A DNA stretch of 64,000 bases from an uncultured bacterium. Lineage in GTDB: Bacteria > Cyanobacteriota > Cyanobacteriia > Cyanobacteriales > JASJDA01. How positions within the stretch are numbered: the stretch's first letter is position 1; every line of letters begins with the position of its first letter. This document shows positions 430-30,444 of this stretch, piece after piece. The stretch lies in assembly GCA_964458305.1 (NCBI GenBank), contig CAYWIH010000005.1, positions 1,591 to 65,590 of the forward strand, written 5' to 3'. Both the position numbers and the translations under genes were made by a program. The notes beneath the pieces are model-generated. The model was not told the DNA's origin and did not search any database. It saw only the letters and a list, made by a program, of their open reading frames with translations.

Positions 430-963
430 ATGATGGAAACAAATAGAGAAAAATCCGCCTTAGATATTAGCAGTCAAATTGTTCTGTTACAAGACAAATC
501 CCAGCAAAACGGCGATCGCTTTCTCAAATTTTCTTTGAATCAACAAGTTAATACTTTGCTTCCTCTAGGAAAATTACAAGCAGTAATTAATGTAAAAATA
601 GAGGATATTTTGCCAGTTCCGCAAGTCAAAGAATTTTGGTTAGGTATCATTAACTGGCGCGGACAAGCAATATGGATTCTAGATTTAGCCAGTTTAATTG
701 GGGCAAATCATTGGTGTCGAGGAACGCAAATTAAAGATGCAGGAATGGCAATTTTAGTTAAAATTGAAGACCAAATAATTGGATTTTTAGTAGAGAAAGT
801 AAGCACGATCGCAACTTTAGATCCTAGCAAACAATTATCTTTGTCAGAATCAATGCTTCCTGAAAATTGGGCAGCTTTTTTCTCTGGTTATTTTCTCGAT
901 CCTGACAACAATCCTTTGATGTTAATTGACCTCGAAGTAGTGTATAACGAAGCTTTTGAATAA
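430..963 (+). CDS. CheW-like coupling protein (PixI/TaxW class)
   Basis: 177-aa ORF with ATG start. It has a CheW-type core (LPLGKLQAVINV..ILPVPQV..LGIINWRGQAIWILDLASLIG) and lies directly upstream of the MCP and CheA genes. Confidence 0.85.
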   Translation: MMETNREKSALDISSQIVLLQDKSQQNGDRFLKFSLNQQVNTLLPLGKLQAVINVKIEDILPVPQVKEFWLGIINWRGQAIWILDLASLIGANHWCRGTQIKDAGMAILVKIEDQIIGFLVEKVSTIATLDPSKQLSLSESMLPENWAAFFSGYFLDPDNNPLMLIDLEVVYNEAFE

Positions 964-1275: not shown

Positions 1276-4200
1276 ATGACAAACTCCACGTTAGAACAGC
1301 CTAATCAACCATCAAAAAAAACATCATATCAAGAATTAATTGAAACTTTAGCAGAGCTACAAAAGGAATTAGAACAAACTGATTGTACGGAAAAAGACTT
1401 CATACAAATAAGGATAGAAGAGGTTACAGAATTAGTCGAACGTCTCTCTTCGGAAAATAAAGATCGTATTTTAAATGAAGCAGAAAGAGATGAAAGTTTT
1501 TTCGGAAAAATAGCTAATCGCATTTTAGATGCAGAAGATTTAGATGGTGTTTTTCGCACTGCAACTAAAGAATTAAAAGAAGTATTAAACTGCGATCGAG
1601 CGGCAATTTATCGTTTTAATCCCGACTGGAGCGGTCGATTTGTTGCTGAATATTTTGAAGGTAATTTAGTTTCTTTATTAGAAGAACAGCGTTACAATCC
1701 CGATATTGTTGATAACGTTAACGCCTGCAGTATCAAAGATTTAGCCCACAAAGGTGGACTACTGCAACCAAATTATGGCAACGGAAATGGCAACGGAAAC
1801 GGTTCGATCGATACTTATTTAAAGGCTACTCGAGGCGGATCTTTTTTAAGAGGAGAAACTTACCGAGTTTGTCAAGATATTTACAATAGCAACTTTACTC
1901 CTTGCTACATCAGGGTCTTAAAATCCTATCAAGCAGAAGCTTACGTTATCGCTGCAGTTTATCAAGGTAATAATTTATGGGGCCTGCTAGCAGCATATCA
2001 AAGCAAACCTCGTCAGTGGAAAGATGGCGAAATAGATGTCGTAGTGCAATTAGCAAAAATGTTAAATATTGCCCTACAACAACAAGATTTTCAAAATAAA
2101 GTAGAAATTCAAGCTAAAAAATTAGCCACTCGCAACCAAAGAGAAAAATCTTTAGCTAAGATAGTCGATCGCATTCGCGAAACCGATAACATCAAAACCA
2201 TCCTCAACGTTACCGTCAGCGACATCAGAGAAATGATGCAATGCGATCGAGTAGCGATATATCATTTTAACCCCGATTGGAGCGGTGAATTTATCGCCGA
2301 ATCTGCTAATTCTGAATGGGTATCTTTACTAGAAGAACAGCGTAACGTACCTGAAATCGTTGAAAACGTTAATCGCTGTAGCATTCGCGATCTAGCAGGT
2401 TACGAAGGAGTAGCAGGAGGTTCGAAATCCCTCAAAGAAAGTGCCGATACCTATTTACAGCAAACTAACGGCCGCGATTTTATTCAAGGTGTAAACTATC
2501 GCGTCTGCGAAGATATCTATAATTCTGGCTTTTCCGATTGTTACATCAAAGTTTTAGAAAGATATCAAGCCAAAGCTTATATTATTGCTGCGATCTACTA
2601 CAACAAACAATTATGGGGTTTGCTGGCAGTTTATCAAAATTCGGGCCCTCGCAAATGGGAAGCAGAAGAAATTGAATTAATAAGTCGTTTTGCCAGCCAA
2701 ATTGGGGTAGGAATCCGCCAAACAGGCTATTTGAAAACAATTAAAGCCCAAAACAAGCGACTCAAAAAAAGTGCCCAACAAGAACAGACTTTAGCTAAAG
2801 TAGTCGATCGCATCCTTCAGTCTACAGAATTACAAGAAACTTTAGACAATACAATGCCCGATTTGCGTAACCTTTTAAACGCCGATCGCGTCGCAGTGTA
2901 TAAAATATGTTTCGAAGCTGGCAACAGACACGGTAAATTTATTGCCGAAGATGTAGATAAAAAGTATCCTCGCGCGGTTTCAGTTGAAAGAGTAGAAGAC
3001 CATTATAGCCTCGGAAACGAAGCAGAAATCTACGAGCAAGATAACTATTGGGTAGTCGAAGATATCTACCAAACCAAGTTCAAAGAATCTAAAATCAAAA
3101 TCGTCACTCAGTTTGAAACCAAAGCATACATTAACGTAGCTTTGCTCTGTCAGGGTAAATTGTGGGGTTTATTATGCGTCCATCAGTGCGGGGATACGCG
3201 TAAATGGCAACAAGAAGAAATTAATTTAGCCCTTCAAGTCTCTACTCAGCTGAGTGTCGCGATCGAGCGATCGGAATACGTCAAACAATTAGAAGCCAAA
3301 CAAGCAGAAATCATCAAAACAGCCGACTCGGAAAAAGCCATTTCTCTGCTAGTCGAACGCCTCACCGAAAGAATCAATCAATCCCAAGATTTAAGCCAAA
3401 TTTGGCGCAGTTCCCTTTTAGCCGTCAGAAAAATCATCGAATGCGATCGAGTCACAATTTACCGTTTTAATCCCGACTGGAGTGGGGAATATATTGCCGA
3501 ATCTGTCAGTAGCGATTGGGTGCCATTAGTCGGAGACAATATCAAAACAATTTGGGAAGATACTCACCTCCAAGAAACTCAAGGAGGACGCTATCGCAAT
3601 AACGAGACTTATGCAATAGAAGATATCTACAAAGCCGGCCACTATCAATGTCATATCGACCTTCTCGAACAATTCCAAGTCAGAGCCTATATAATCGCTC
3701 CAATTTTTGCCGGAGATAAGTTATGGGGTTTATTAGCTGCTTATCAAAATACCGGCCCTCGTCAGTGGAACGATCGAGAACAAAGACTGATAACTAAATT
3801 AGGAGTACAATTCGGTTTAGCAGTCAAACAAGCCGAGTATTTACAACAGTTACAACAACAAAACTCTAGACTAGTTCGCACCGCACAAATCGAAAAGAAA
3901 CAAGCCGAATTAGCCGAAAGAATTCGCCAAGATCGCAACCTCGATAGTATCTTTAATCTCGTTACCGGAGAAATTAGGCAATTATTAAACTGCGATCGAG
4001 TTGTAGTTTATCGCTTTAACGATGACTGGAGCGGTGAATTCATTGCCGAAGCGATCGGATCTTCTCAGTGGGTATCTTTGTTAGAACAGCAAAACATCAG
4101 ACCCGAAATTAAAGCCAATGTCAACGATTGCAGCGTCAAAGACTTAGCCGCAAATCAAAATAGCCGCAATTCTTTCAGCGCAGATACTGAAATTCAAGCA

Positions 4201-6720
4201 ACTAAAGGCGGCAATTTAACCCAAGATAAAGTTTATCGCGTTTGCGAAGATATCTATAATTCTGGCTTCTCCGATTGTTACATCAAAGTTTTAGAAACCT
4301 ATCAAACCAAAGCTTACGTAATTTCTGCGATTTACCAAAACGGCGAATTGTGGGGCTTATTTGCTGCCTATCAAAACGATCGACCTCGCCAATGGCAAGA
4401 AGAAGAAATCGATTTGATGACTGGGGTAGCAGAAAAACTCAGTATCTCACTCGAACAAGCCGAATATATCAAACAACTTCAAGCTAAAAATAAAGAAATC
4501 GCTCAAGTTGTCGAAACAGAAAAAGCTTTAGGACTCTTAGGGGAAAGAATTCGCCAAACTAAGGATCTAGATGCTGTTTTTAAATATACTCTTCCCGAAA
4601 TTAGGGATCTGCTCAAATGCGATCGCATTGTAGTTTATCGTTTTAATCCCGATTGGAGCGGCAAAATCATCGCCGAATCTGTAACTGAAGGTTGGATCTC
4701 TTTAATGGATTTACAAGAAAGCGATTCTAAAATTAGAAACGATTTAGTTCCCTCCGACGATTGTACCGTTAAAGAATACGGCAGTTTACAAGGGGATGGG
4801 TTTGGAGATACCTACCTTCAAGAAAACAAAGGCGGTATTTATTCTGCTGGCCGTCGCTATCGTAAAGTAAACGATGTCAGTGCTGAGAATTTCTCTGCTT
4901 GCTATTTAGATACTCTTCGCAAATTCCAAGCAAAAGCTTACATTAACGCACCAATTTACCAAGGAGGTAAACTTTGGGCACTTTTGGCAGTTTATCAAAA
5001 TTCCGGCCCTAGGGTTTGGCAAGATCGCGAAGTCGATTTATTAGTTAAAATTAGCGTCCAATACAGTATTGCAGTTCAGCAAGCTCAGTATTTCCAAGAA
5101 GTCCAAGATAAAAACGAAAAACTGACCCGATTGTTAACAACAGAAAAAGCCAACGCGCGCTTTTTATCTCGTCTTCCCAGTCGTTTAATCGATCTCGCAC
5201 AATCAACCGGAAAAATTGCAGAAATCTTAGATTATGCAGTTCGTGACCTGCGTCAGTTATTGAAAGTCGATCGAGTTGGAATTTATCGCTTCGATCCAGA
5301 TTGGTCGGGAGAATTTATCGTCGAGTCCGTAGGTAGTCAATGGCCTAAGTTAGTCGGAACTTCTCAAGCAAGAGTTCAAGATACTTATCTCCAAGAAAAT
5401 CAAGGCGGTCGTTACGCTCGTCGCGAAGGGCTTAAAGTCGATAATATCTATACCGTCGGACACGATGAATGTCACATTAACCTGCTCGCAGAATGGGGAA
5501 CTAAAGCTTATACGATCGCTCCGATTTTCGTTGGCGATCTGCTTTGGGGACTGCTCGGAGTTTATCAAAACGACCAACCCCGTCAATGGGAACAATCCGA
5601 GTTAGACGTAAGCATCCAAACCGGAATCCAAATTGGTACGGCGATCAAATTAGCTGAAACCCTAGAAAAAGTTAAGAAACAAGAACAACAATTAAGCGAA
5701 ATCGCCGATCGAGAAAAAACCGCCAGACAACAATTACAAAAAAATGCTCTCAAAGTTCTCAAAGCGGTACAACCTTCTTTCTCTGGAGATTTGACCGTTC
5801 GCGCGCCCCTTTCCGAAGACGAAATCGGTACGATCGCCGATGGTTACAACACTACCATTCAAAGATTGCGGCAATTAGTCGGACAAGTTAAGCAAGTTGC
5901 TTCTCGTATTGGCGAAACTTCCACCGATAGCGATCGCTTGGTAAGTCGACTGTCTAACAAAGCAGACCAACAGGTTCAAGAGCTTAGAAATGCTTTAGTT
6001 CAACTCAATTCCGTGGTTGCTTCTTCTCAAACAGTAGCTAACGACGCGCAAAAAGTAGAACAAGCTTTACAAGATGCCAACCGCATCGTCAACAGTGGCG
6101 ACTCTTTAATGGAGAAAACTGTCGATGGTATCGAAGAAATACGCGAAACAGTCTCCGAAACCTCCAAGAAAATCAAGCGTTTGGGCGAAGCTTCCCAGAA
6201 AATTACTAAAGTGGTCAATTTGATCGAAAACTTTGCCACTCAAACTAATTTACTAGCCTTAAATGCTGCTATTGAAGCTACCCGCGCTGGCGAATACGGT
6301 AAAGGTTTCGCTGTAGTTGCCGATGAAGTACGCGCCCTCGCCTATCAGTCTGCTAATGCAACCACCGAAATTAGCCGCATCGTCGCAGAAATTCAAGCTG
6401 AAACTAGCGAAGTGACCGAAACCATGGAACTGGGAATTACTCAAGTAGTTCAAGGTACTCAATTGGTTAACGACACTCGAGACAGTCTCAACGAAATCGT
6501 TCGAGCCACCAATCGCATCAGTCAATTGGTAGAAAAAATTACCCAAGCGGCTTCGGTACAAAGCCAACAATGTCAAGGCTTAACTACGGCAATGAATGAC
6601 GTATCTTCGATCGCTACTTCTACTTCAGATAGTGCTAGCTCGATCGCCGAGTCTTTCCAAAAACTACGGCACAATTCTCAAGAGTTACAAACTAGCGTCA
6701 GTAAATTCAAAGTCGAATAA
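1276..6720 (+). CDS. Soluble methyl-accepting chemotaxis protein with seven tandem GAF domains (PixJ/PtxD-like putative cyanobacteriochrome photoreceptor)
   Basis: 1814 aa. There are seven repeats of the GAF pattern DR(V/A)[17 protein letters not shown]...[14 protein letters not shown]. These are followed by a HAMP-like linker and the MCP signalling domain ([32 protein letters not shown]). No hydrophobic TM stretch was seen. Confidence 0.9.
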
Positions 6721-6727
6721 TTCTAAC

Positions 6728-6752
6728 ATCGGCAGGATCGGCAGGATCGCAG
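6728..6752. repeat. 9-bp tandem repeat ATCGGCAGG x2 plus a partial copy, just after the MCP stop
   Basis: Read directly: atcggcagg atcggcagg atcgcag. Confidence 0.8.
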
Positions 6753-6809
6753 AAGACAATATTCTTATTTGTCCTACTCATTTAATTCAAAAACTCCCAA
6801 ATTCTGCCG

Positions 6810-6891
6810 CTTCCGATTTCTTTACCAACATACCATCATGGTACGTCCCTACTTCCGATTTCTTTACCGACGTACCATGGTACGTCTCTAC
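6810..6891. repeat. Tandem duplication (42 + 40 bp) of an element with a palindromic core, in the MCP-cheA spacer
   Basis: Unit A (6810-6851) is cttccgatttctttaccaacataccatcatggtacgtcccta. Unit B (6852-6891) is cttccgatttctttaccgacgtaccatggtacgtctctac. Unit B contains a perfect 18-bp palindrome gacgtaccatggtacgtc (6869-6886). Confidence 0.85.
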
Positions 6892-6912
6892 TAACCCCTA
6901 CATCCCAAAATC

Positions 6913-9900
6913 ATGGAACAATTAGATCCTTACTTTGCCGAAGAAGCAAGCGAAATATTACAAAAAATCGAACAGACGCTTTTGAGCCTTTTTGATGAGG
7001 GAAAAACAACTGAAAAAGTTCATACCCTCTTAAGAGGTGCTCATACTATCAAAGGCAGTGCTGCCAGTTTAAAATTAGATACGATTAAAATCATCGCCCA
7101 TCACTTAGAAGATGTCTTTCAAGCTCTTTACGCTCCAGAATTAGAAATAGATTCGGAATTGAGTGGTTTATTATTAGAAGGTTACGAATGCTTGCGATCG
7201 CCTTTGAGCGCGATGCTATCTAATACTACTTACGATGAAGAGGTAATTTTAGATCGCGTTGCTTCTGTTTTTGCTAAATTACAAAATAAATTAGGGGATT
7301 TTTTCGGTCGCGAAGCTACTATCCCTTCTTCAGAAGAACTCGGTTTTGACGTAGTTGGTTCGATATTTCAAGATAGCGTTCCCGAAGATTTAGAACAACT
7401 ACAAAATGTCATTCTCAACTCAGATCCCGAAGAAATCGAACAAGTTCTTCTTTCTCAAGCTAATTTTTTCCTCAGTATTGCTAAATCTTATACTCTACCA
7501 GGTTTAGAAGAAATTGCTCAAAGCATATTAGCCGCTTTAGAATCTTCTCCCGAAAGAGTTTTAGAAATTGGTTTAGCAGCATTAGAAAACTTACAACAAG
7601 CACAAAACGATATTTTAGCTGGCGATCGCATTAAGGGAGGCGAAGTATCTCTGGAATTACAAAGTTTTGTCGAAGAAGAAGAAGAACAACTAGAAGAAAC
7701 TATCTTTTTTGTATCTAAAAATACAGCAGTAACTCCTGAAGTTATAGTTGAAAAAGAACCAGAAAAAGAGCCAGAAACTATTAACAAATCCCCAACTCAA
7801 TCTGAAGAAAATTCAGATTATTCGTTAGTTAAAATTCCAGAAATAAAAACTCTTACCAACACTCACGCACTTGTTCCAATAGAAAATAGATCCCCTCTCG
7901 ATCGAATTTTTAACTCGATTTGGACTCCCGATCTCGAAGATAGTAAACCGCTTCAATCGATCGATCTCTCCGCTCCACCAAAACCAGAAAAAAAATCTCC
8001 AACTGCAACAATTAGAGTTGCAATAGAATTGCTCGATAATCTCAGTCATAGTATCGGCGAATTAATAATCGAAGAAAGTCAAAACTTTTTACAATCAGAA
8101 CTGCTCGATCGGCAAACTCAACATACCCTAGTTCAATTCTTTGATTGCCAAAAACAAATCGATCGAATTCGCGAATGGTCGGATAAAAATTTACGCTATT
8201 CTCGGCTAAAAAAAAGAAAGAAAAGAGAAAAACTTAAACAACAATATTCTCAGTCCAACTTATCATTAACCAAGCTAGATTCTCAATTCGATAGTTTGGA
8301 AATGGATACTTATAGCGACCTCCATTTACTATTACAAAATCTCAGTGAAAAAGTAGCAAGTTTAGGAAGAGAAATAGAAAGTATTCAAGCAAATATTCAG
8401 CAATCTCACCTCCAAAGTCGCAAACGCAAACAAATCCTTTTCTCAGCTCGAGAAAATTTATTTGAAGCGAGAATGGTAGAACTAGCTACTGTTTTAAATC
8501 GGTTTCCTCGTATTGTCGAACAGATGGTAGCCAATCATAAAAAACCAGCCGCATTAAAAATTATTGGTGCGGAAGTTTTAATAGATAAATCAATTTCAGA
8601 ACGACTTTACGAGCCTTTATTACATTTAATTCGTAATGCTTACGATCATGGCTTAGAATCCGTCGAAACAAGGATTGAAAATGGCAAACCAGAAACTGGG
8701 AAGATAACCATTCACGCTTCCCATCAAGGCAATCGTACTACTGTCAAAATTAGCGACGATGGTGGGGGTTTAAACTGGGAGAAAATCCGCAATAAAGCCT
8801 TAACAAGAAATTTAATTACTCCCGATTTAATAGATAAAATAACCGAAGCAGAATTGAGCGAAGTTTTATTCGAGCCGGGCTTTTCTACAGCAGATCGAGT
8901 TAACGATTTATCCGGTCGCGGTGTAGGATTAGATTTAGTTCGGAATCAATTAGAAGCGATCGACGGTTCGATTGCAGTGCGATCGGAATCTGGTAAAGGA
9001 ACTAGTTTCACTTTACAATTACCTTTAAATCTGACTACCGCTCGTTTGCTTGTTTGTCAGTGTTGGGGCATTACTTATGCTTTATTAAGTAAATCGATCG
9101 AACAAATTTTACTGCCAAATTCTCAACAAATTCAAACACAAAAATCCCCCGAAGGAGATTGGCAAACTTATTTAGTTTGGAATGATAACGAACGTTTGAT
9201 TGAGATTCGACCTTTTGCCGATCTATTTAAATATCCTTATCCCATCAAAAAACAAAATAAAAGTTCTTCTTTAAGTACTTTTCCCCTCAAAGGAAACAAC
9301 AATCTCAATCCTTTACTAATTTTAAAACAAGAAGAGCAGATATTTTGCTTGCAAGTCGATCGAGTATTATTCGAGCAAGAAATAGTCATTAAAACTTTGG
9401 CAGGAAAAATTGATTTACCAAGTTACATTCAAGGTTATAGCGTTTTAGGAGATGGGGGTCTTACTTTGGCGATCGATCCGCTAGAATTAATTGCTAAAAA
9501 TTGGGACGATCGAACTTCTCTTGCTGTTGCTGCTCTTGCTCCGGCTGACAATTTTAAAGCCTTAGAAACTTCTTTAAAAAATACTCAACTTTTAACTGCA
9601 AGTAAAGACTCTCTCGATAACATTCAACTAGAAAAAGCTGTCAAAAAAATTACTATTTTAGCTATCGAAGATTCTATAGTTCAAAGGAGAACTTTAGTAG
9701 ACAATCTCGAAAAAAATGGCTATCAGGTTTTCCAAGCAGGTAACGGGCAAGAAGGATTAAATGTCTTAGAAAAAAATCCAGAAATTAATTTAATTATCTG
9801 CGATATTGAAATGCCTGTTATGAACGGTTTTGATTTCTTAAATCAGTGCCGTCACAATCCTAAATTTTCTCAAATACCCGTAATTATGTTAACAACTCGT

Positions 9901-10011
9901 GGCGGCAACAAACATCGAGAATTGGCTTTTGCTTTGGGTGCAAAAGCTTATCAAACTAAACCTTTTTCCGAACAAAATCTTTTAGCTGCAATCGTTCAAT
10001 TATCTAATTAA
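6913..10011 (+). CDS. CheA-type histidine kinase fused to a C-terminal receiver (PixL/TaxAY class)
   Basis: 1032 aa. It has an N-terminal HPt (LLRGAHTIKGSAASL), HATPase boxes (HLIRNAYDHGLE, DDGGGL, GRGVGLDLV, GKGTSFTL), a CheW-like domain and a C-terminal REC (ILAIEDS..ICDIEMPVMNG..TKP). Confidence 0.9.
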   Translation: MEQLDPYFAEEASEILQKIEQTLLSLFDEGKTTEKVHTLLRGAHTIKGSAASLKLDTIKIIAHHLEDVFQALYAPELEIDSELSGLLLEGYECLRSPLSAMLSNTTYDEEVILDRVASVFAKLQNKLGDFFGREATIPSSEELGFDVVGSIFQDSVPEDLEQLQNVILNSDPEEIEQVLLSQANFFLSIAKSYTLPGLEEIAQSILAALESSPERVLEIGLAALENLQQAQNDILAGDRIKGGEVSLELQSFVEEEEEQLEETIFFVSKNTAVTPEVIVEKEPEKEPETINKSPTQSEENSDYSLVKIPEIKTLTNTHALVPIENRSPLDRIFNSIWTPDLEDSKPLQSIDLSAPPKPEKKSPTATIRVAIELLDNLSHSIGELIIEESQNFLQSELLDRQTQHTLVQFFDCQKQIDRIREWSDKNLRYSRLKKRKKREKLKQQYSQSNLSLTKLDSQFDSLEMDTYSDLHLLLQNLSEKVASLGREIESIQANIQQSHLQSRKRKQILFSARENLFEARMVELATVLNRFPRIVEQMVANHKKPAALKIIGAEVLIDKSISERLYEPLLHLIRNAYDHGLESVETRIENGKPETGKITIHASHQGNRTTVKISDDGGGLNWEKIRNKALTRNLITPDLIDKITEAELSEVLFEPGFSTADRVNDLSGRGVGLDLVRNQLEAIDGSIAVRSESGKGTSFTLQLPLNLTTARLLVCQCWGITYALLSKSIEQILLPNSQQIQTQKSPEGDWQTYLVWNDNERLIEIRPFADLFKYPYPIKKQNKSSSLSTFPLKGNNNLNPLLILKQEEQIFCLQVDRVLFEQEIVIKTLAGKIDLPSYIQGYSVLGDGGLTLAIDPLELIAKNWDDRTSLAVAALAPADNFKALETSLKNTQLLTASKDSLDNIQLEKAVKKITILAIEDSIVQRRTLVDNLEKNGYQVFQAGNGQEGLNVLEKNPEINLIICDIEMPVMNGFDFLNQCRHNPKFSQIPVIMLTTRGGNKHRELAFALGAKAYQTKPFSEQNLLAAIVQLSN

Positions 10012-10013
10012 TT

Positions 10014-11054
10014 ATGGTCAAAATTCAAAACGCTATTGAAACATCTCTAAATTTTAAGCGGTTATCTGGAACTAATAGTTCAAAAAATTCGGTCAGGGTA
10101 ATTGTTTTTGCTGTTTTCGATTATCTTTTTGCTATTTCCGTTGGAGCGGTTAATAAAATAATTCCCTGTCCTCCTTTACATTTAAAATTTGAAGATGGTA
10201 CTACTACGATCGATTTGGAACGAGAAACAATTACGATTGTAGATTTACGTCACAAATTTATTAAAGAAGAATTAGAACCGATCGAAGTATCCACTTCTAA
10301 CAATTCTTTTTTGATTTTAATTCAAACAATTACTGGAGAATCTTGCGGAATTTTTACCGAAAAACCACCCCTAATTATCGAAATACCTTTACAAAACATT
10401 CGCCCCGTACCTTCATCTTATCGGGAAATAGGAAAACTTACTTTTGTCAGTCATATGGCTATTTTACCAGCCGCAGAAGGTAACGAACCCACTAAAATAT
10501 TTTTATTGGGTATGAATCAAATTATCGCCCGAAAATTAGGTATCTCCTTACCGGAAACCTCTCTATTAGTTACTGAAACTAGAGAGATCGAACCTCAACA
10601 GCGTTTTCTACCGGTTATTTTGGGGGATGGAAAAGCTTTATTACCTCTCAACTCCGTATGTGGTAAGATGCCAGTTGCGATCGAAGATATTTATCCCACT
10701 CCTGCTTTACCTCGATGGGTTTTAGGTATTTACAATTGGAACGGACATATGTTACGTTCGATCGATCTCAACAGTCTGATGGGTTACCCTCCCCTATTTG
10801 CCGATCGAGCGAAGACTGTAACACCAATAACTATCGTTGTCGAATTTCAAAATCAATTTTTGGGTTGTTTGGTTGCGGATATATGCGATCTTGAAAATTA
10901 CCAATTAGATCGAATGGAGTCGATCGACGATCGCGATCTTCGAGAGGGAATGAAAAGGTTTGTTAAAGGTGCTTTTGGAGATCGACGCTGGGTGTTAGAT
11001 GTAGAACAATTATTTAAAGCAGTTCGATCGCTTAATAATCATCCTGCTAGTTAA
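10014..11054 (+). CDS. Double CheW-like coupling protein
   Basis: 346 aa, with the ATG 3 nt after the cheA stop. The C-terminal half parallels the CheW at 430-963 (LGIYNWNGHMLRSIDLNSLMG vs LGIINWRGQAIWILDLASLIG). The N-terminal half looks like a second, degenerate CheW module. Confidence 0.7.
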   Translation: MVKIQNAIETSLNFKRLSGTNSSKNSVRVIVFAVFDYLFAISVGAVNKIIPCPPLHLKFEDGTTTIDLERETITIVDLRHKFIKEELEPIEVSTSNNSFLILIQTITGESCGIFTEKPPLIIEIPLQNIRPVPSSYREIGKLTFVSHMAILPAAEGNEPTKIFLLGMNQIIARKLGISLPETSLLVTETREIEPQQRFLPVILGDGKALLPLNSVCGKMPVAIEDIYPTPALPRWVLGIYNWNGHMLRSIDLNSLMGYPPLFADRAKTVTPITIVVEFQNQFLGCLVADICDLENYQLDRMESIDDRDLREGMKRFVKGAFGDRRWVLDVEQLFKAVRSLNNHPAS

Positions 11055-11133: not shown

Positions 11134-11502
11134 TTATTTGTAAGCTAGCGATTGGTTGATAGTTTCTAATAATTGGTTTTCATCTATAGGTTTAGTTATA
11201 TAAGCATTTGCACCGCTCATATCTCCCCAAGATCGATCGAGATCTGTATTTTTTGAAGAACAAATTACGACCGGAATGAATTTTGTACTCGGATCTTCTT
11301 TAAGCTGACGACACAATTCAAAACCACTTTGTCCGGGTAAAATTACATCCAATACGATTAAATCTGGTTTGTTTTGTTGTATCCTAATTAGTGCTTCTTC
11401 AGCACTTTTAGCCGTAACTACAGTTAATCCTTCTTTTTCCAGACAGGTTTTAATTTTTTCTCTTTGTTCCAGACTATCTTCAACTACAAATACTTGACTC
11501 AT
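11134..11502 (-). CDS. Single-domain CheY-like response regulator (PixH/TaxY class)
   Basis: 122 aa with receiver motifs: VFVVEDS, DLIVLDVILPG and ITKP. Confidence 0.85.
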   Translation of the reverse strand: MSQVFVVEDSLEQREKIKTCLEKEGLTVVTAKSAEEALIRIQQNKPDLIVLDVILPGQSGFELCRQLKEDPSTKFIPVVICSSKNTDLDRSWGDMSGANAYITKPIDENQLLETINQSLAYK

Positions 11503-11689: not shown

Positions 11690-12871
11690 TTATTTAACTG
11701 GCAAATGTTTTTTAAGTAACCCTAATACTTCTTCTGGATTTGCTGGTTTAGAAATAAATGCTGTCGCTCCTACAACTTTAGCCCTTACTCGATCGACTAA
11801 GCCATCTTTTCCAGTTAAAATTACGATCGGAACATCTTTGAAATTTGGTATTTTTCTTAGTTGAGCGCAAAGTTCGTAACCGCTCACAACTGGCATCATC
11901 AAATCTAGAAAAATGAAATCGGGGGAGTTTTTAATGATAAAAGGAATTGCTTTGACCGGATCTTGTAAGCTAATAAAACGGTAGGAACTTTCAGAAACTA
12001 TTTTTTCCATATCTTGACAAATTACCGGACTATCGTCGACGCAAAGCACTAAAAAAGAAGGCTTTTCTGGTTCTAAAGGACTAAAAATAGAATCCTCATT
12101 ACTAGAAGAACTAATAGCTTTAAAAGATTCGAGATCTGGTTTTCTATGAGTTGGAAATTCTTGTAAAGAAATAGCACCCGCTTTAAGATCGGGTAGCAAA
12201 TATTTTATTAATTCTGCCAATTCTAAACCTGTTTTAGCAGCTAAGAAACGCAAGCTTTTTGTGCCATCAATTAAAGAAATAAGCTTTGGATTTAATTGTT
12301 GTTGAGCTGCATTTAAATCTTCGATCGCTAAGAAATAACTAGGGTAGTATGAGGACAATCCTGCTGCATTCCATTCTTTCCACTCAGCAAGAGCTTTTTG
12401 ACTTACTAGATCGGTTTTGATTAAAGTTACCAGACTTTCTGGTTTTTCGTTAGCAATGGTTATGTATGATAATCGTTCTTTATTAAGAGCATCCCATTGA
12501 ATCAAATCGAACAAAGTTTCGACAAAAATACTTGTTATTAATTCAGTAATATTCTGTTTGTCTTGTGGGTTTCCTTGACGATATAACTGAGCTAATATTG
12601 TGTAATATTCAGCTTCGTTTTGGTTTAAAATTTCATCTCGTTTTTCATCATTTAAATTAGCTAAAAATGAGTCGATGTGTCGCTGCCATTCTTCTTTAAA
12701 ATAAACAGCTTCGCTAGTTACCCAAATTAAACGACCGAGGCGAAAATATATCTTCCAATTTAAGCCGTTCTCGTTCTCGATCGAGAGGCTTCCAGTAAAG
12801 TTTCGCTTAGCTAATTCTTCTAACTGAATTATGGGCTGGCTCAATTTTGTTTCGTTATTAATTGTTTGCAT
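11690..12871 (-). CDS. PatA-type response regulator (PATAN-like N-terminal domain + receiver; PixG/PilG class)
   Basis: 393 aa. A C-terminal REC (VLCVDDSP..IFLDLMMPVVSG..ISKP) is preceded by a WKIYFRLGRLIWVTS-type N-terminal domain as in PatA-family regulators. Confidence 0.8.
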   Translation of the reverse strand: MQTINNETKLSQPIIQLEELAKRNFTGSLSIENENGLNWKIYFRLGRLIWVTSEAVYFKEEWQRHIDSFLANLNDEKRDEILNQNEAEYYTILAQLYRQGNPQDKQNITELITSIFVETLFDLIQWDALNKERLSYITIANEKPESLVTLIKTDLVSQKALAEWKEWNAAGLSSYYPSYFLAIEDLNAAQQQLNPKLISLIDGTKSLRFLAAKTGLELAELIKYLLPDLKAGAISLQEFPTHRKPDLESFKAISSSSNEDSIFSPLEPEKPSFLVLCVDDSPVICQDMEKIVSESSYRFISLQDPVKAIPFIIKNSPDFIFLDLMMPVVSGYELCAQLRKIPNFKDVPIVILTGKDGLVDRVRAKVVGATAFISKPANPEEVLGLLKKHLPVK

Positions 12872-16437: not shown

Positions 16438-18123
16438 CTATTCGCTTTTTTGTTTGCTAACTACCATAGTTGCCGGATCGACTGTTACAGTACCGTAGTC
16501 GTAGGGGCCGTGAGTGACGATCGGATCTTCATCGAAGTTTTCGATCGCTGGTGGGGAGGTAGTTTGCCATTCTAAAGTCAAAGCACCCCAAGGATTTTCT
16601 GGCGCGTCTTCACCGCCAACCCAACTCCAAATAACATTAACTACGAAAGGAAGCAGGGATAAACCTAAAATCATGCTGCCGTAAGTCACCAACTGGTTGA
16701 GGCTGGCAAATTGAGGATCGTATAATGCTACTCTTCTGGGCATTCCTTGCAATCCTAAAATGTGCATCGGGAAGAATGTTAAGTTAGTACCGATGAAGGT
16801 GAGGAAAAAGTGAGCTCGGCCCAATCTTTCATCGAGCATTTTTCCGGTGATTTTCGGAAACCAGTGGTAAATTCCGGCATAAATTCCAAATACCGATCCG
16901 CCAAAGAGTACGTAATGGAAGTGACCGACGACATAGTAACTATCGTGAACGTGAAGGTCAAAAGGTGCGTTACCTAAAGTTACGCCGCCAATACCGCCAA
17001 CTACGAACATTAATAACAAGCCGACGGCAAATAGCATTGCAGAAGTGTAGCGAATTTTACCGCCCCACATCGTACCTACCCAACTGAAGATTTTAACTCC
17101 TGTCGGCACTGCTACGAGTAAGGTGGTGATGGTAAAGAACATCCGCATCCAGCCTGGCGTACCGCTAGTGAACATATGGTGTACCCAAACGATCAAACCG
17201 ACGGCACAAATTGCCATACTGGAGTAGACGATCGCCATGTAACCGAAAATTGGTTTGCGGGAGTGAACCGGAACTACTTCGGACATGATACCGAAGATCG
17301 GCAGAATCATGAGATATACTGCGGGGTGAGAGTAGAACCAGAATAAGTGCTGATAAACTACTACGTCGCCGCCCATTTCCGGTCTGAAGAAGCCAGTACC
17401 GAAGTTGATATCGAATAGAAGTAAGATTAAGCCTGCTGCTAATACTGGGGTGGAAACTAATGCTAGTAAGGATGTAGCTAAAATTGCCCAGCAGAATAGA
17501 GGTAATTGAGTCCACTTCATTGTCGGAACTTTAAGCTTCCAAGTGGTGATGACGAAGTTTAAAGAACCTAAAATTGAGGATGTTCCTACGCAAACAATAC
17601 TTAAAATCCAGAGACTTTGGGCTGTATTTGCGGTAATGATACTTAAAGGTGGATATGCAGTCCAACCTGTTTGCGATCCGCCAAAGAAGAAACTGGCGAT
17701 TAAAAATGCTCCGGCTAAGGGGTTGAGCCAGAAAGCGATCGCGTTTAAGTTGGGAAATGCCATATCTTTAGCACCGACCATCAGGGGAACTAAGAAGTTA
17801 CCAAAACCCCCGATCGCGGAAGGAACGATCCAATAAAAGATCATGATCGTCCCGTGATTGGTCATGAAGGCGTTATATACTTCGGGACTGAGAAAGTCTA
17901 CATTTGGGGTAAACAGTTCGATCCGAACCGCCATCGCCATCAAACCGCCGATTAAATAGAAGAAAAAGGCTGTAACGATGTATTGAATGCCGATTACTTT
18001 ATGGTCGGTGTTGTACCAAAAATAATGGTACCATTCCCATTTTTCTGGATGAGAGTGAGCGGCGGCGTGAGTATTTTCTACGCTACCCGCTACTGTTATT
18101 TGTGATGGTTTGGTTTGTGTCAT
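16438..18123 (-). CDS. ctaD: Cytochrome c oxidase subunit I
   Basis: 561 aa with heme-copper oxidase signatures (WFYSHPAVY, VWVHHMFTSG, HFHYVLFGG). Confidence 0.95.
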   Translation of the reverse strand: MTQTKPSQITVAGSVENTHAAAHSHPEKWEWYHYFWYNTDHKVIGIQYIVTAFFFYLIGGLMAMAVRIELFTPNVDFLSPEVYNAFMTNHGTIMIFYWIVPSAIGGFGNFLVPLMVGAKDMAFPNLNAIAFWLNPLAGAFLIASFFFGGSQTGWTAYPPLSIITANTAQSLWILSIVCVGTSSILGSLNFVITTWKLKVPTMKWTQLPLFCWAILATSLLALVSTPVLAAGLILLLFDINFGTGFFRPEMGGDVVVYQHLFWFYSHPAVYLMILPIFGIMSEVVPVHSRKPIFGYMAIVYSSMAICAVGLIVWVHHMFTSGTPGWMRMFFTITTLLVAVPTGVKIFSWVGTMWGGKIRYTSAMLFAVGLLLMFVVGGIGGVTLGNAPFDLHVHDSYYVVGHFHYVLFGGSVFGIYAGIYHWFPKITGKMLDERLGRAHFFLTFIGTNLTFFPMHILGLQGMPRRVALYDPQFASLNQLVTYGSMILGLSLLPFVVNVIWSWVGGEDAPENPWGALTLEWQTTSPPAIENFDEDPIVTHGPYDYGTVTVDPATMVVSKQKSE

Positions 18124-18294
18124 TCGAGGATAGAAAATATTAAAATTTCTTTGTTTTGATTCAAGTTTGTATCTGAGGAGAAGGGGAACAGTTTTTAAAT
18201 CCAGATTCGTTTTTGCTTTGTCAAACTCGTCTCATTTTTGTTGGTTCTGCTCCCTGCTGTCTGCCTCAAAGCCTGGATAGGATTGCTGCAAGGT

Positions 18295-19326
18295 CTATTG
18301 ATATGCCCGTCCGGTCGTCGCACTGGCTACGTGGCGATCGCTTTTGATTTCGATTAATGTATCTTTATCTACTCCTAAATCGGAACTGTAGGGTTCTAAA
18401 AATTCTCGATCGCTCATGTCTCTAGTGCTTGCTGCTACTGTTTCTGTAGCATTTTCTTGTTTTTGAGCCGTAACTCCGTTTTCTGCTAACCAAGCGTCGT
18501 ATTCTTCTGGAGTGTGGACGTAGATTTTCGATCTCATCCCACCGTGATAGCTGCCGCATAGTTCGGCACAGACGATCGGAAATATTCCTGTTTTAGTGGC
18601 TACAAAGCGCATTTGACTTGGTTTGCCGGGCATTACGTCTTGTTTGATGCGGAATTGAGGCACCCAAAAGGCATGAAGTACGTCGGTTGCCACTAATTCT
18701 AGTTGAACTTCTTTGCCTACGGGAACGTGGAGTTCGCCGGACATAATTCCAGTTTCTGGATAGTTAAACAGCCAAGCAAATTGCAGTCCTGTTACTTTAA
18801 CTTTTAGATCTGCTGCGGTATTTTCTCTACCTGGGGCCGCACCTACACCGTATTTGCTGCTTTCGCTATCGGCGATCGCTGGGGCTGTCATTGCTTCTGC
18901 CATTTCCGAATGGCTTTCGTGCGTTCCCCCCATGTGATGTCCGGGTGGTTCTAAACCTCCCATTTCTTTAAATACGTCGGTGCTGTAAATACCTAAAAAG
19001 ATTACGATAATTGCTGGGATAGCCGTCCAAAATATTTCTAAAGGTAAATTACCTTTAATCGGTTCGGCATCGCTGTTATCGCCCTCGCGATGGCGGAATT
19101 TTATTAATGCGTAAATAATCGCTCCATCTGTCAGTAGAAATAAAGCCGTTCCGATCGTGATTAATATATCGAAAAGATTATCTACTAATGGTGCTTGTAG
19201 CGATGCTTGCTCTGGCATCGTCCAGGCTAGGTTTTTTCCCACCCAAAGACTAATTACTGTTACTAGCACTCCAATGGCTAGCGTCCACATTGAGCCGGGA
19301 ATTGTTTCTTTGTGATTGTGCTCCAC
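18295..19326 (-). CDS. ctaC: Cytochrome c oxidase subunit II (CuA type)
   Basis: 343 aa with the CuA motif HAFWVPQ...CAELCGSYHGGM. The annotated start is GTG, and an internal ATG (M13) is possible. Confidence 0.9.
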   Translation of the reverse strand: MEHNHKETIPGSMWTLAIGVLVTVISLWVGKNLAWTMPEQASLQAPLVDNLFDILITIGTALFLLTDGAIIYALIKFRHREGDNSDAEPIKGNLPLEIFWTAIPAIIVIFLGIYSTDVFKEMGGLEPPGHHMGGTHESHSEMAEAMTAPAIADSESSKYGVGAAPGRENTAADLKVKVTGLQFAWLFNYPETGIMSGELHVPVGKEVQLELVATDVLHAFWVPQFRIKQDVMPGKPSQMRFVATKTGIFPIVCAELCGSYHGGMRSKIYVHTPEEYDAWLAENGVTAQKQENATETVAASTRDMSDREFLEPYSSDLGVDKDTLIEIKSDRHVASATTGRAYQ

Positions 19327-20951: not shown

Positions 20952-23900
20952 TTAAAAAACGGTATTATTCGTCCATTTTGTAATGGTGGTTTCTAGATCT
21001 TCGATAACGATCGGTTTACTGAGATAATCATCCATACCGACATGCAAGCATTTTTCGCGATCGCCTCTCATGGCGTTACCAGTCAAGCCGATGATGATGG
21101 TGTGTTGTTCTGCTCCTTCTGTTTCGCGTAAAATACGAGTAGCTTCGTAACCGTCCATAATTGGCATTTGACAGTCCATTAAAATAATATCGTAATCTTG
21201 TTCTCTCCATCTTTCGATCGCTTCTTGACCGTTAACAGCTTCATCAAAAGAGTATCCGAAACTTTTCAGGGCGCAAGAAAGGACAAAACGATTGTCGGCA
21301 TAATCTTCGACAATGAGAATTTTAAGAGTGCGATCTTTTGGTTCTAAAGGAGTAGAATTAGCAAAATCGGATGAAGAAATTGCCGAGCGATCTTGATTGT
21401 TGACTGTCTCTAAAGGAATTTTAAACCAGAAAGTAGATCCAGAGCCTAAAGAACTTTCAACGCCTATTTTGCCATTCATTAACTCGACAATGCGGCGACA
21501 AATAGTCAAACCCAGTCCCGTACCTCCATATTTGCGGGTAGTGGAAGCATCTGCTTGAGTAAAGGGTTGAAAGAGACTGTTTTTAATTTCTGGGGAGATG
21601 CCTATTCCAGTATCGGTAACTTTAAAAAGCAGAGTAATTTTATTGGGATTATTTTCATCTCGATCGACATAAGTAACCGAAACATCGATCGATCCGGTTT
21701 CGGTAAACTTAATCCCATTACCGACGAGGTTGCTAATAACTTGTTGGAGTCGAAAGTTATCGCCGTATAGGTTTTTAGGAAGATCTGAATCAATATTAAA
21801 GTTTAATTTTAGATCTTTTTCTGATGCTAAGGGACATAGACAATCAAAGAGATCTTGAAATAGCTTTTCTAAGTTAAATTCTTTAAATTCTAATTCTAAT
21901 TTTCTTTCTTCGAGTTTGGACAGATCGAGAATATCGTTAATCAGACCTAGCAATTTCTCGCCGTTTACTTTGAGAGTTTGTAATAACTTGATTTTCTCTG
22001 GGTCTTGTTCTTGTTGCAGTAATAATTGACTGACACCGAGAACTGAATTCATCGGGGTGCGAATTTCATGACTCATATTAGCTAAAAATTCGCTTTTAGC
22101 TTGGTTGGCAGAATCGGCAGCTCTGGCGGTAGCGATCGCTTTTTCAAGGGCTTGATTGTTGTCTTTTAGTTCCCGTTCGATTTGCTTGCGATCGCTAATA
22201 TCCATAACTATCCCGTAAAGCAAAACCCCTTTTGATTTTTCCCCTTCTGGGCTGCTAATATTGGTGGCACGACCGATCGTGTTGATGTGGCGCAACTGTC
22301 CGTCGGGACGATAAAAGCAAAGGTCTATATTGTAAGAAGTAAAGTCTTCTAGCAATCGATTGGTAGCTGTTTCTAGCTTTTTGCGATCTTCTGCGGGATG
22401 GTATGATAATAATTCAGCTAAAGTTGGCGGTTCGCTTTCTGGGTCGAAGCCGTAGATCTCAAATAATTCTTGCGACCAAACGGGGATAGTGTTGTAAAGA
22501 TCTTTAGCCTTGGTAATTTTTACTTCCCAATTACCCAAACGAGCCAATCTTTGAGCCTCTTTGAGTTTGATCTCGCTTTGTTTGAGTGCTTCTTGGGCTT
22601 GAAGGCGATCGGTAATTTCGACGACTACCGTACCTACTCCGAGACCTTCATTGACAAAATTAACGGGATAGTAGCTAGCTTGCCAAACTCGATCTGTTTC
22701 GGGATCTGCTGCTGTTGTGCCGCGAATTTCGATATTATTAATAGTCTGCTGGGTTTCGAGTACTTGTTTTAAAATCGATTCGATGTACGATCCTAAGTTT
22801 AAGACCTTTTTTTTCCCAGTCTTACTGATATTTTTTCCCTTTACGATTGTAGAAAATACTTCTGTAGGAGTTTTTCCGATATGTTCGGCGATGCTCGTAC
22901 CGTTAATATCTGCTAAAGCTTGGTTGATTCGCAAGTGTTTGAGATTTTTATCGTGCAAACTCAAACCTACGGGACTGTTATTGTACAAATTTTCTAATAA
23001 AATATTGGCTTGAGATAGTTCTTTTTGTACTTTTTTGAGTTCGCCAATGTTAACTAAGGTAATGACGATGCCTTCTTTTGTCCCGTCTTCTTTCAAATAA
23101 TTATTGATTCGCATCAATAATTCTTCGCCGGTTTTGGAGATATTAACTTCTTGCTCGATCGGCTGGGAAGTTTTTTTAACTGTTTCGAGAATTTCAATTA
23201 AATCTAAGTTATTTAAATTGTGAGTCAGTTCGGAAATGGGACGATTAATATCTGCGGGCCTTAGATTAATAGCTGAAGTTGCGGCTGGGGTGAATTTGCG
23301 AATATTTAGCTCGAAATCGAGAAATATGACCCCGATATCGGTGCTGCGGAGTAAATTATCGACATCGTTATTTAGTTGAACTAATTCTTGAATTTTAGAT
23401 TGATATTCTGCATTAACTGTATATAGCTCTTCATTTACCGATTGCAGTTCTTCGTTAGTACTTTGCAATTCTTCGTTAGAAGATAATAATTCTTCGTTGG
23501 TGGCTTGTTGTTCTTCGTTATTTGTTTCTAATTCTTCAATGGTAACTTGCAGATTTTGGCGAGTTTGCCGCAGCTCGTATTCTAGTTCTAAAATTTGCTC
23601 GGTGGCTTGTTTTTCTGCTTCAAAAGGTAAAGCTGTGTTGGATGAAGCGGTAGCTTTTTCTATTTCTAAAACGACAATTAAATATTTCTCACCGTTGCGA
23701 TCGCTCGGATCTAATCCTACTTTGAGATTGACGCTTTTATTTTCTCCATCTTTAATTAGATTAATTCCGGTGTATTGAATTGGTTTTTTATCTCTTTTGG
23801 CGCAGTGTAGGGCGGTAGAAACGGGTAATTTTAGGGCGGGGTTAATAATTTCGGTGATATCTAAATTAGCTTGTCCTACGGGAAATTCTAAGAGATCCGC

Positions 23901-25523
23901 AGCATTGTAAAATATACGCAGGAGTCGGTTGTCTTCGTCGACTAACAAGCAAGTTAGCTCTCTTTGGGGCAGACAATATTTAAAAGCTTCTGCTAAAGAT
24001 CGATCTATCTTATCTTTTCTGGATTTGTTGCGAGCTTTATAATTAAAAGATGGAATAAGAGTCTGTCGCCTCATCGGCATCAAAGAGAAAGAAACGTCTT
24101 TACGCTTGCGAAAGATTTTCCATTTTGGTTCGATCGGGCTAAATTCTTCGGTTAAGTCTGCTAATGTTTCCGAACTACCTAAAAATAAAATTCCTTGTTT
24201 GTCTAGGGCATAGTTTAGCAGTCTTAAAACTTGTTGTTGCAGTTGAGGCTGCATATAAATTAAAACGTTGCGACAGCTAACTAACTGCATTTGGGAAAAG
24301 CCAGCATTTTTTGTTAAGTCGTGGGGAGAAATAATTAACATTTCCCTCAAACTTCGCCTGACTTGATAGCTTTCTCCGGTGTAGATAAAATATTTTTCTA
24401 ACCTTTCTGGGGATATATCGTTAATAATACTTTCTGGATAAACTCCACTGGCTGCTATTTCTAAAGCTTTATCGTCGATGTCGGTAACAAAAATTTTCAC
24501 CTGTAGGGATTTATTTGCTTTTTCTAAGGCTTCATCGATTAAAATTGCCATAGAATAGGCTTCTTCTCCTGTAGCGCAAGCGCAAACCCAGATTCTGAGT
24601 TGTTCTTCTGGGTTTCGATCGGCAATAATTTTAGGTATTATTTCTGCTTCTAAATATTCCCAGGCCGGCCTGTCGCGGAAAAAACAAGTGACTCCGATCA
24701 GCAAATCTTGACGCAGGGATTTTTGCTCTTCTTCTGCATTTTCGAGCAGTTTAATATAATCGTCGATATTTTTATTGCGGGTTAAAACGCAGCGATTGGC
24801 GATCCGCCGCGAGATGGTACTAATTTTATAATGAGAAAAGTCTACTTCTTCTCGTTCTGCTAATATATCTAAAATTTCCTGCAGTTTGTCCGAGGCGATC
24901 GAACCGGCTTCGTTAATTATTGCAGAATTATAGGCTCTAAAAAAGTGAATTAAATCGAATACTGTAGCGGCTAAATCTTCTGGAGAAAGTATTTCATCTA
25001 CTAAACCTGAAGGTATCGCACTGGTTGGCATGCTGGTAAATTGGGCTGTTTCGGGAGATTGAACTAATGCCGTACCTCCTGCTTTGCTAATTGCTTCGAG
25101 TCCTTCTTTTCCGTCGCTTCCCGTACCCGAGAGCAATATTGCTATTTTTCTAATGCTTTCTTGCTCTGCTAAAGATTTCAAAAATCGATCGATCGGATAG
25201 TTTACTTTTGTCCCTCGATCGCTTAATTTTAATTCTCTATTTTTTAAGATTAAATTTTTTCCTGGTGGCAGTAAATAAACTTGACTTGGCTCTAAAATCG
25301 TACCATCTTCGATCGCAACGACTGACATTGCTGTTTCTTTTCGTAAAATTTGGCCCATCATGCTTTTATGATTTGGAGACAGGTGCTGCACCACTACGAA
25401 AGCTGCTTTCGGAGTATCTGGTAAACGGCGAAAAAATTTTTGTAATGCTTGAACTCCCCCCGCAGAAGCTCCAATACCAACTACACACAAACTTTTAAAA
25501 TTATTACCAAGTCGATCGTTCAT
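20952..25523 (-). CDS. CheB-CheR fusion / PAS / hybrid histidine kinase with receiver
   Basis: 1523 aa. It has an N-terminal CheB methylesterase-like region ([14 protein letters not shown]), a CheR SAM-methyltransferase region and a NEEL-repeat coiled coil ([26 protein letters not shown]). PAS domains, HisKA ([10 protein letters not shown]), HATPase (GTGLGLTI) and a C-terminal REC ([12 protein letters not shown]) follow. Confidence 0.85.
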
Positions 25524-27589: not shown

Positions 27590-27853
27590 TTATTCCTCAA
27601 CTAGTTCTAGTTCTTTTTTGCGACAGCCTACAACTACACCTTTCTCAATAAAATGAACTGCATAGATGTAATAGGTTTGCAGATAAGTGCCGATATCAAC
27701 TACATAGCCGACATCTCCTTTTTTGGCTAAATGTGCCCCAACTTCTTTGCCTGGAAAAGTTCCGTCGTTACGAATTAGCTTCTTTAAGCGGACTTTTTGC
27801 TCGATATTGAAAGTCGGAGGGCCATTTAATTCTATTTCATCATCCCATCCCAT
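27590..27853 (-). CDS. nifZ: NifZ
   Basis: 87 aa. KVRLKKLIRNDGTFPGKEVGAHLAKKGDVGYVVDIGTYLQTYYIYAVHF is the NifZ signature. It overlaps nifV by 14 nt. Confidence 0.85.
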   Translation of the reverse strand: MGWDDEIELNGPPTFNIEQKVRLKKLIRNDGTFPGKEVGAHLAKKGDVGYVVDIGTYLQTYYIYAVHFIEKGVVVGCRKKELELVEE

Positions 27854-28976: not shown

Positions 28977-29009
28977 TGGAATTGAGCTTTTATAATAGTT
29001 TTTTTTTTA

Positions 29010-30271: not shown

Positions 30272-30444
30272 CAAATTCTACGCTTGAAAGTTGATAAAGT
30301 TTATTTTTTAATGCTTATAGCAACTGAAGGGGTTGAAGTTAGTATAGTCAATCGCTATTAAACTAATTATTATTATTATTCGGTACTCAAAAAAAGCTAA
30401 TCCCAGCTATAGCAATGGTTAAAACCTCGTTTTAAAAAAAATTT

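Follow-up and report, generated by a model that had tools for sequence, protein, structure and literature searches.

Domain architecture of the receptor

The window analysed here is a stretch of 64,000 nucleotides from an uncultured cyanobacterium (positions 1,591 to 65,590 of contig CAYWIH010000005.1), and the subject of this work is the open reading frame (ORF) near its beginning, which encodes a chemotaxis protein of the methyl-accepting kind (MCP) carrying a long array of GAF domains. The domains of this receptor, its residue patterns, its orthology and the setting of its gene were all observed directly. We consider it highly probable that the ORF encodes a soluble cyanobacteriochrome (CBCR) photoreceptor of the PtxD/PixJ type, in which GAF1, GAF2, GAF5 and GAF6 are insert-Cys domains and which controls the che-type neighbours and phototaxis. 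The features of the receptor are listed below; the third Cys is the cysteine in an RVC-type context upstream of the canonical one.

1276..6720, + strand: whole receptor ORF, 1814 amino acids; N-terminal hydrophilic region, seven GAF domains, HAMP-like stretch, MCP signalling domain (Pfam, hydropathy)
1501..2106, + strand: GAF1 (residues 76-277), insert-Cys CBCR of the NpF2164g2/NpR1597g2 near-UV/blue type; C151 in CSIK, DTYL, C199 (RVC), C210-Y (53% identity to NpF2164g2)
2152..2745, + strand: GAF2 (residues 293-490), insert-Cys CBCR of the g2 type; C368 in CSIR, DTYL, third Cys C411, canonical C422-Y (sequence match, AlphaFold model)
2791..3294, + strand: GAF3 (residues 506-673), degenerate; Ser-Lys replacing Cys-His/Tyr, DHYS replacing D-x-x-L, without insertion (25-34% identity to any NpF2164 GAF)
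3352..3855, + strand: GAF4 (residues 693-860), canonical Cys-His CBCR, nearest to the NpF2164g4/g6 type; lid Trp (TIWEDTHLQ), C792-H793 (codon 3649-3651) (67%/65% identity to NpF2164g4/g6)
3901..4482, + strand: GAF5 (residues 876-1069), insert-Cys CBCR of the g2/NpR1597g2 type; C952 in CSVK, third Cys C990, C1001-Y, DTEI replacing DTYL (55% identity to an NpR1597g2 orthologue)
4528..5106, + strand: GAF6 (residues 1085-1277), insert-Cys CBCR of the NpF2164g3 violet/orange type; C1163 in CTVK, DTYL, C1209-Y, Val at the third-Cys position (51% identity to NpF2164g3)
5176..5676, + strand: GAF7 (residues 1301-1467), Cys-His CBCR of the NpF2164g7 type; C1399-H1400 (codon 5470-5472), DTYL, without lid Trp (66% identity to NpF2164g7)
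5782..5874, + strand: HAMP-like linker stretch (residues about 1503-1533); a weak match (Pfam HAMP E=5e-4, 20.8 bits, under the 25-bit cut-off)
6070..6612, + strand: MCP signalling domain (residues 1599-1779) (Pfam MCPsignal E=1e-42)

Seven GAF stretches are recognised in the ORF (Pfam GAF E=4.8e-132) together with the signalling domain, and the seven-GAF MCP proposed in the first-pass annotation of this DNA is thereby borne out. The residues named in that annotation were also read correctly. GAF4 and GAF7 are canonical Cys-His CBCR domains, and Cys-Tyr is found at the predicted positions in GAF1, GAF2, GAF5 and GAF6. The same four domains carry the predicted cysteine in an insertion, which corresponds to the insert-Cys of dual-cysteine CBCRs (in GAF1, C151 sits in NVNACSIKD), and three of the four have the RVC-type cysteine (RVCQDIY in GAF1), which is Val in GAF6. 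The canonical cysteine is missing from GAF3, as had been noted, although other cysteines (C545, C625, C634 and C638) lie elsewhere in that domain; covalent bilin binding by GAF3 is unlikely.

From the beta2 region to the Asp motif there are 37-47 residues in GAF1, GAF2, GAF5 and GAF6 and 12-13 in GAF4 and GAF7, so the insertion of the former comprises about 24-35 residues. The Asp motifs read, from GAF1 to GAF7, DTYL, DTYL, DHYS, DTHL, DTEI, DTYL and DTYL, and the lid Trp is absent from all four Cys-Tyr domains. Of the residues that mark canonical red/green CBCRs, GAF4 has the Cys-His pair, the lid Trp at two residues before the Asp and the helix Phe at Cys+8 (F800); its beta2 residue is Tyr (SGEYIAES), not Phe. 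The cysteine of the beta1 'CDR' motif is kept in five of the seven GAFs (GAF1, 2, 4, 5 and 6); its counterpart in UG1, C672, can be replaced by Ala with wild-type behaviour (PMC5240096 supplement). With the DXCF motif present in none of the seven GAFs, assignment to the DXCF class was rejected.

No transmembrane (TM) segment was found in the 1814-residue receptor by a 19-residue Kyte-Doolittle scan, in agreement with the soluble receptor suggested earlier. The highest mean hydropathy is 1.57 and falls inside a GAF core strand, and a TM-anchored receptor was rejected on this ground.

Relation to PtxD and PixJ

The receptor is identical in sequence to a public 'GAF domain-containing protein' (P0001) of a Prochloraceae metagenome-assembled genome (MAG). 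Its nearest relatives after P0001 are two other Prochloraceae proteins, P0002 and P0003, with 58-62% identity, followed by a tight Nostoc family of 1745-1748 amino acids with 48% identity over 99% of the query. The latter includes P0149, which is ACC80768.1 of N. punctiforme and has Cys546 in SSERCNIKDYG and a canonical C591-Y. Cys546 is the published insert-Cys of NpF2164g3 (PMC5240096); therefore, P0149 is PtxD/NpF2164. PtxD is a seven-GAF photoreceptor that is needed for phototaxis of N. punctiforme hormogonia and is co-encoded with homologues of CheY, CheW and CheA (PMC5812497). The likeness to PtxD and PixJ pointed out in the first-pass annotation is thus supported by full-length similarity to the Nostoc PtxD orthologues and by the che-type neighbours.

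To relate the individual modules, each GAF of the receptor was compared by BLAST with each GAF of NpF2164. GAF1, GAF2 and GAF5 match g2 best (53-54% identity), GAF6 matches g3 (51%), GAF4 matches g4 (67%, with g6 next at 65%) and GAF7 matches g7 (66%), and GAF3 is without a clear match (25-34%). A literature search found no paper matching the name NpF2164g7.

On the one hand, the two receptors share the succession of seven GAFs and an MCP signalling domain, alignment over the full length, che-type neighbour genes, and the same kinds of module (g2-type and g3-type insert-Cys domains, a g4/g6-type domain and a g7-type C-terminal GAF), which at the C-terminal end stand in the same relative order. 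On the other hand, the domain order is I-I-x-H-I-I-H in the receptor (I, insert-Cys; x, Cys-less; H, Cys-His) and x-I-I-H-Y-H-H in PtxD. The receptor lacks the Cys-less GAF found at the N terminus of PtxD, and its own Cys-less GAF is internal; a single canonical Cys-His domain of the g4/g6 type (GAF4) takes the place of the three domains g4-g6 of PtxD; and the g2-type module is present three times, each time with the third Cys, where NpF2164g2 has Thr. The I-I-x-H start is common to the receptor and both Prochloraceae relatives, and P0002 and P0003 have a Cys-less GAF at the location of GAF3. By sequence, the receptor is orthologous to a phototaxis photoreceptor that is already known, with its domains in a rearranged order, and it provides a further natural example of the PtxD scaffold rebuilt by shuffling of CBCR modules.

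The presence of four insert-Cys domains was considered as a unique architecture and rejected. Among 120 homologues, nine proteins have four insert-Cys GAFs, one has five and one has six.

SyPixJ1 and TePixJ, the blue/green PixJ receptors of the DXCF type, resemble the receptor in joining one or more CBCR GAFs to an MCP domain and in belonging to a tax/pix che-like cluster; their second Cys forms a C10 adduct, as is predicted for the receptor. They differ from it in the location of this second Cys, which lies in the DXCF motif in these proteins and in the insertion loop in the receptor. SyPixJ1 has TM segments, unlike the receptor.

The Cys-Tyr domains belong by sequence to the insert-Cys cyanobacteriochromes

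Insert-Cys CBCRs are defined by a second Cys that adds to C10 of the bilin and lies in a poorly conserved CXXR/K motif of an insertion loop (PMC5240096; PMC7332365). The insertion cysteines of GAF1, GAF2, GAF5 and GAF6 are found in CSIK, CSIR, CSVK and CTVK, all of which fit this motif. For the four tabulated insert-Cys CBCRs, Mbr3854g4 and Mbl3738g2 (UG1 and UG2), NpR1597g2 and NpF2164g3, the 'DXCF/CH-motif' is given as 'DTYL/CY' (PMC5240096 Table S2), and in NpF2164 the corresponding cysteines are C331...C384-Y (g2) and C546...C591-Y (g3). DTYL/CY is also the reading of GAF1, GAF2 and GAF6. The receptor domains therefore share the CXXR/K loop cysteine, DTYL rather than DXCF, and Cys-Tyr with NpF2164g2, NpF2164g3, NpR1597g2, Mbr3854g4 and Mbl3738g2, and they depart from them in GAF5, which reads DTEI/CY. 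The insert-Cys CBCRs have been placed in the red/green clade related to AnPixJg2 (PMC5240096).

To see how general the Cys-Tyr pair is, GAFs of retrieved homologues were parsed with a hidden Markov model built from the seven GAFs of the receptor. The samples comprised 120 PixJ/PtxD-like MCPs and 144 further representatives from a library clustered at 50% identity, with 2007 unique GAFs overall. Cys-Tyr is present in 153/153 insert-Cys GAFs of the first sample, in 107/109 of the second and in 404 of the 406 found among all unique GAFs. Cys-Tyr is therefore a rule of the family and not a novelty.

Average-linkage clustering of the 406 insert-Cys GAFs at about 50% identity gave two main groups. 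The g2-type group (n=211) includes GAF1, GAF2 and GAF5 together with NpF2164g2 in one cluster, and the g3-type group (n=130) includes GAF6 together with NpF2164g3. NpF2164g2 and NpR1597g2 are near-UV/blue CBCRs and NpF2164g3 is violet/orange (PMC5240096, Fig. 1 legend). In the AlphaFold model of GAF2 (mean pLDDT 75.9) the domain adopts the CBCR GAF fold, with AnPixJg2 and Slr1393g3 as the best PDB matches, and the insert Cys is located within a moderately confident helix. Judged by these sequence relations, GAF1, GAF2, GAF5 and GAF6 are ordinary members of the characterised insert-Cys subfamily.

The third cysteine

The third Cys of GAF1, GAF2 and GAF5 (C199, codon 1870-1872; C411, codon 2506-2508; C990, codon 4243-4245) lies 11 residues upstream of the canonical Cys and corresponds in the alignment to V310 of AnPixJg2 and V676 of NpR6012g4. 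The position is occupied by Thr in NpF2164g2 and by Val in NpF2164g3.

Among the homologues, a family of histidine kinases was noticed whose GAFs are arranged as DXCF, insert-Cys, DXCF, Cys-His, an order of GAF types that NpR1597 also has. Species-representative genomes were scanned with an alignment of the two N-terminal GAFs of this family, and 80 of the 559 loci were used. Counted from the natural Met (MENSSTTQP...), the insert Cys falls at residue 298 in 29 of 34 Nostoc-type loci, in the context NVSECSAKD. Residue 298 is the published number of the insert-Cys of NpR1597g2, and the beta1 Ala, the beta2 Phe, DTYL/CY and the helix Tyr of the Nostoc loci agree with the NpR1597g2 (UB1) row of Table S2 (PMC5240096). 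YR[IV]CNDIY, which contains the third Cys, is present in 32/32 Nostoc loci with a recognisable canonical motif. Thus the characterised NpR1597g2, a near-UV/blue domain for which the second linkage is reported to be stable (PMC5240096), very likely has the three-Cys pattern already, judging from its 32 orthologues. These orthologues share the pattern with GAF1, GAF2 and GAF5, to which they are 47-55% identical, and differ in being part of a histidine kinase with DXCF and insert-Cys GAFs instead of an MCP. None of the retrieved proteins fits the residue numbering of Mbr3854g4 or Mbl3738g2.

The first-pass annotation had suggested that Cys-Tyr combined with extra cysteines may represent a distinct class. 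This part of its interpretation is not upheld, since Cys-Tyr is general among insert-Cys GAFs and the RVC-type Cys recurs in every scorable Nostoc orthologue of NpR1597g2; the domains belong, in essence, to an already characterised subfamily with the same cysteine pattern. What stands of that interpretation is the PtxD/PixJ-type MCP without TM segment, the insert-Cys assignment and the Cys-His nature of GAF4 and GAF7.

Two further observations concern the histidine-kinase family. In 24 of 41 members of the NpR1597 type, the third Cys is present both in the N-terminal DXCF GAF ('IWAC.DIY') and in the adjacent insert-Cys GAF ('FRVCNDIY'). Many Nostoc g2 domains of NpR1597 orthologues have an additional Cys five residues upstream (S.CEVYRIC).

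The distribution of the third Cys over GAF classes was counted in three ways, with a sampling that was in part seeded by a protein picked for carrying this Cys.

120 MCP set: insert-Cys 19/153, DXCF 9/76, single-Cys 1/408, Cys-less 0/191
50% representatives: insert-Cys 27/109, DXCF 5/133, single-Cys 1/172
60%-identity clusters: insert-Cys 25/85, DXCF 5/92, single-Cys 1/124, Cys-less 2/179

The third Cys occurs in 12-25% of insert-Cys GAFs and in 4-12% of DXCF GAFs, where it is confined to a small sub-clade. The lone single-Cys GAF with a third Cys in the 120 MCP set is an N-terminally truncated domain. Among insert-Cys GAFs it is found only in the g2-type cluster (103/211, a number inflated by the third homologue search) and in a small NIDTEGCT cluster (11/26), and not one of the 130 domains of the g3 type has it. 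Its inheritance follows clades (22 Fitch changes, compared with about 104 in shuffled data), and P0002 and P0003 keep it although the flanking residues differ.

Such a pattern invites the question of whether the three-Cys domains GAF1, GAF2 and GAF5 form a functionally distinct subclass for redox or colour tuning, in which the third Cys forms a disulfide with the insert-Cys or competes for C10 of the bilin. That the third Cys is all but limited to insert-Cys GAFs and a small sub-clade of DXCF GAFs (25/85 insert-Cys against 1/124 single-Cys clusters), is inherited within clades and is retained in the Prochloraceae relatives speaks for a function, and a literature search found no paper linking CBCRs with the third Cys and none on its role. 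In the GAF2 model the predicted strand Y-R-V-C (local positions 116-119) ends with the third Cys, which stands two residues after the equivalent of F308 of AnPixJg2, a residue near rings C and D of the bilin (PMC8156171). The side chain should therefore face the bilin pocket, a geometry derived from strand periodicity only. Against such a subclass stands the comparison of NpF2164g2, which has Thr at this position, with the NpR1597g2 orthologues, which have the Cys: near-UV/blue is the reported type in either case, so that colour is not determined to first order by the third Cys. Moreover, half of the g2-type cluster has V, T, A or I instead, the association with DXCF GAFs is weak at the level of clusters (5/92), and the partial seeding of the sample also counts against it. 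A distinct tuning subclass is considered unlikely, and a small chance is likewise given to the third Cys being a functional thiol, either by disulfide exchange with the insert-Cys or as an alternative nucleophile for C10. If it were so, a large subset of insert-Cys CBCRs would have a redox-dependent UV/blue channel, and a receptor with three such domains would integrate light colour and cellular thiol state in phototaxis. A third cysteine on the pocket strand, common in insert-Cys GAFs and apparently unstudied, is a small lead beyond the annotation.

Gene neighbourhood and output of the receptor

The receptor gene is surrounded by genes of a che-like cluster.

430..963, + strand: CheW-like coupling protein, in the PixI/PtxC-type position upstream of the receptor (Pfam CheW E=6.8e-19)
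6913..10011, + strand: CheA-type histidine kinase with C-terminal receiver; Hpt, H-kinase_dim, HATPase_c, CheW, REC (Pfam)
10014..11054, + strand: second CheW-domain protein, with two CheW stretches (Pfam)
11134..11502, - strand: single-domain CheY-like response regulator, convergent with the receptor operon (Pfam Response_reg E=3.3e-26)
11690..12871, - strand: PatA-like response regulator; C-terminal receiver (Response_reg E=5e-22) and N-terminal PATAN/DUF4388-like region (DUF4388 E=1.1e-4, 22.7 bits, just under the 25-bit cut-off)

With CheW, CheA-REC, a double CheW, CheY and a PatA-like regulator, this is a cluster of the pix/ptx type. An ORF of 109 amino acids (6596-6925, + strand) shares sequence with the 3' end of the MCP gene and with the beginning of cheA; Pfam finds no match in it, and it is unlikely to be a gene.

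It could be asked whether the receptor feeds a che-like pathway with an output other than phototaxis, for example biofilm formation, aggregation or development. In cyanobacteria, several outputs are served by che-like clusters that include a PatA-type regulator, the receptor comes from an uncultured MAG, and 10 kb away there is a separate gene for a CheB-CheR-PAS-histidine kinase. Nevertheless, PtxD, the closest characterised full-length relative, is needed for phototaxis and is itself co-encoded with homologues of CheY, CheW and CheA (PMC5812497), which makes such an output quite improbable.

Predicted photochemistry and signalling

Bilin binding, colours and phototaxis output of the receptor are predicted from characterised homologues. 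In the photoreceptor proposed here, the CBCR GAF array would be joined by a linker to the methyl-accepting signalling domain, and the latter would control the neighbouring CheW, CheA-REC, CheY and PatA-like proteins and hence phototaxis based on type IV pili. By analogy, six of the seven GAFs would bind phycocyanobilin through the canonical Cys. In GAF1, GAF2 and GAF5 the insertion-loop Cys of the CXXR/K motif is predicted to add to C10 of the bilin and to yield near-UV/blue-type photocycles, and GAF6 would be of the NpF2164g3 kind, violet/orange with a light-labile second linkage. GAF4 would be nearest to NpF2164g4 and GAF7 to NpF2164g7, with GAF3 as a putative degenerate, Cys-less spacer. 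Because the UV/blue module of the g2 type is present three times, the receptor would be weighted to short wavelengths; three domains of the near-UV/blue type and one of the violet/orange type suggest as much.

That the Cys-Tyr domains are degenerate, non-photoactive spacers or dimerisation modules in which loss of the His has abolished bilin chemistry is highly improbable: the His is indeed replaced and the lid Trp absent in GAF1, GAF2, GAF5 and GAF6, but all four insert-Cys CBCRs tabulated in PMC5240096 have Cys-Tyr and photoconvert, the canonical Cys, the insert Cys, the Asp of D-x-x-L and the Tyr after the Cys are invariant in a divergent alignment, and the pairwise identity to characterised domains is 47-55%.

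Several points weigh against the interpretation of the ORF as a phototaxis photoreceptor with the colours given above. The colour of a CBCR is hard to predict from sequence, and the homologues from which the colours were extrapolated have about 50% identity. The CheY-like and PatA-like genes are on the opposite strand and convergent with the receptor operon, and not upstream as in Synechocystis tax1. The organism is an uncultured MAG labelled Prochloraceae. In addition, GAF5 may photoconvert poorly or differently, because its DTEI (Asp motif at residues ~973-976) replaces a Tyr whose substitution lowers photoconversion in characterised domains: in UG1 and UG2, a change of the DTYL Tyr to Cys cuts photoconversion to 12-24%, and a change to Phe is tolerated (PMC5240096 supplement). 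DTEI is unique among the 406 insert-Cys GAFs, 217 of which have DTYL, and the orthologue of GAF5 in P0003 has DTQI. The Glu in place of a Tyr relevant to photoconversion is a second small lead beyond the annotation.

Other genes in the window

About 10 kb from the che-like cluster, a fusion protein of 1523 amino acids (20952-25523, - strand) combines a CheB methylesterase, a CheR methyltransferase, three PAS domains, HisKA/HATPase and a receiver. Further away, a protein of 1860 amino acids (50222-55804, - strand) contains a Ser/Thr kinase domain, AAA_16, GAF and a C-terminal AAA_35. The regions 16438-19326 (- strand) and 27840-32691 contain genes for subunits I and II of cytochrome oxidase, one gene resembling homocitrate synthase and another that is NifB-like (radical SAM and FeMo-cofactor domains), and the proximity of these genes suggests that the source organism is a diazotrophic cyanobacterium.

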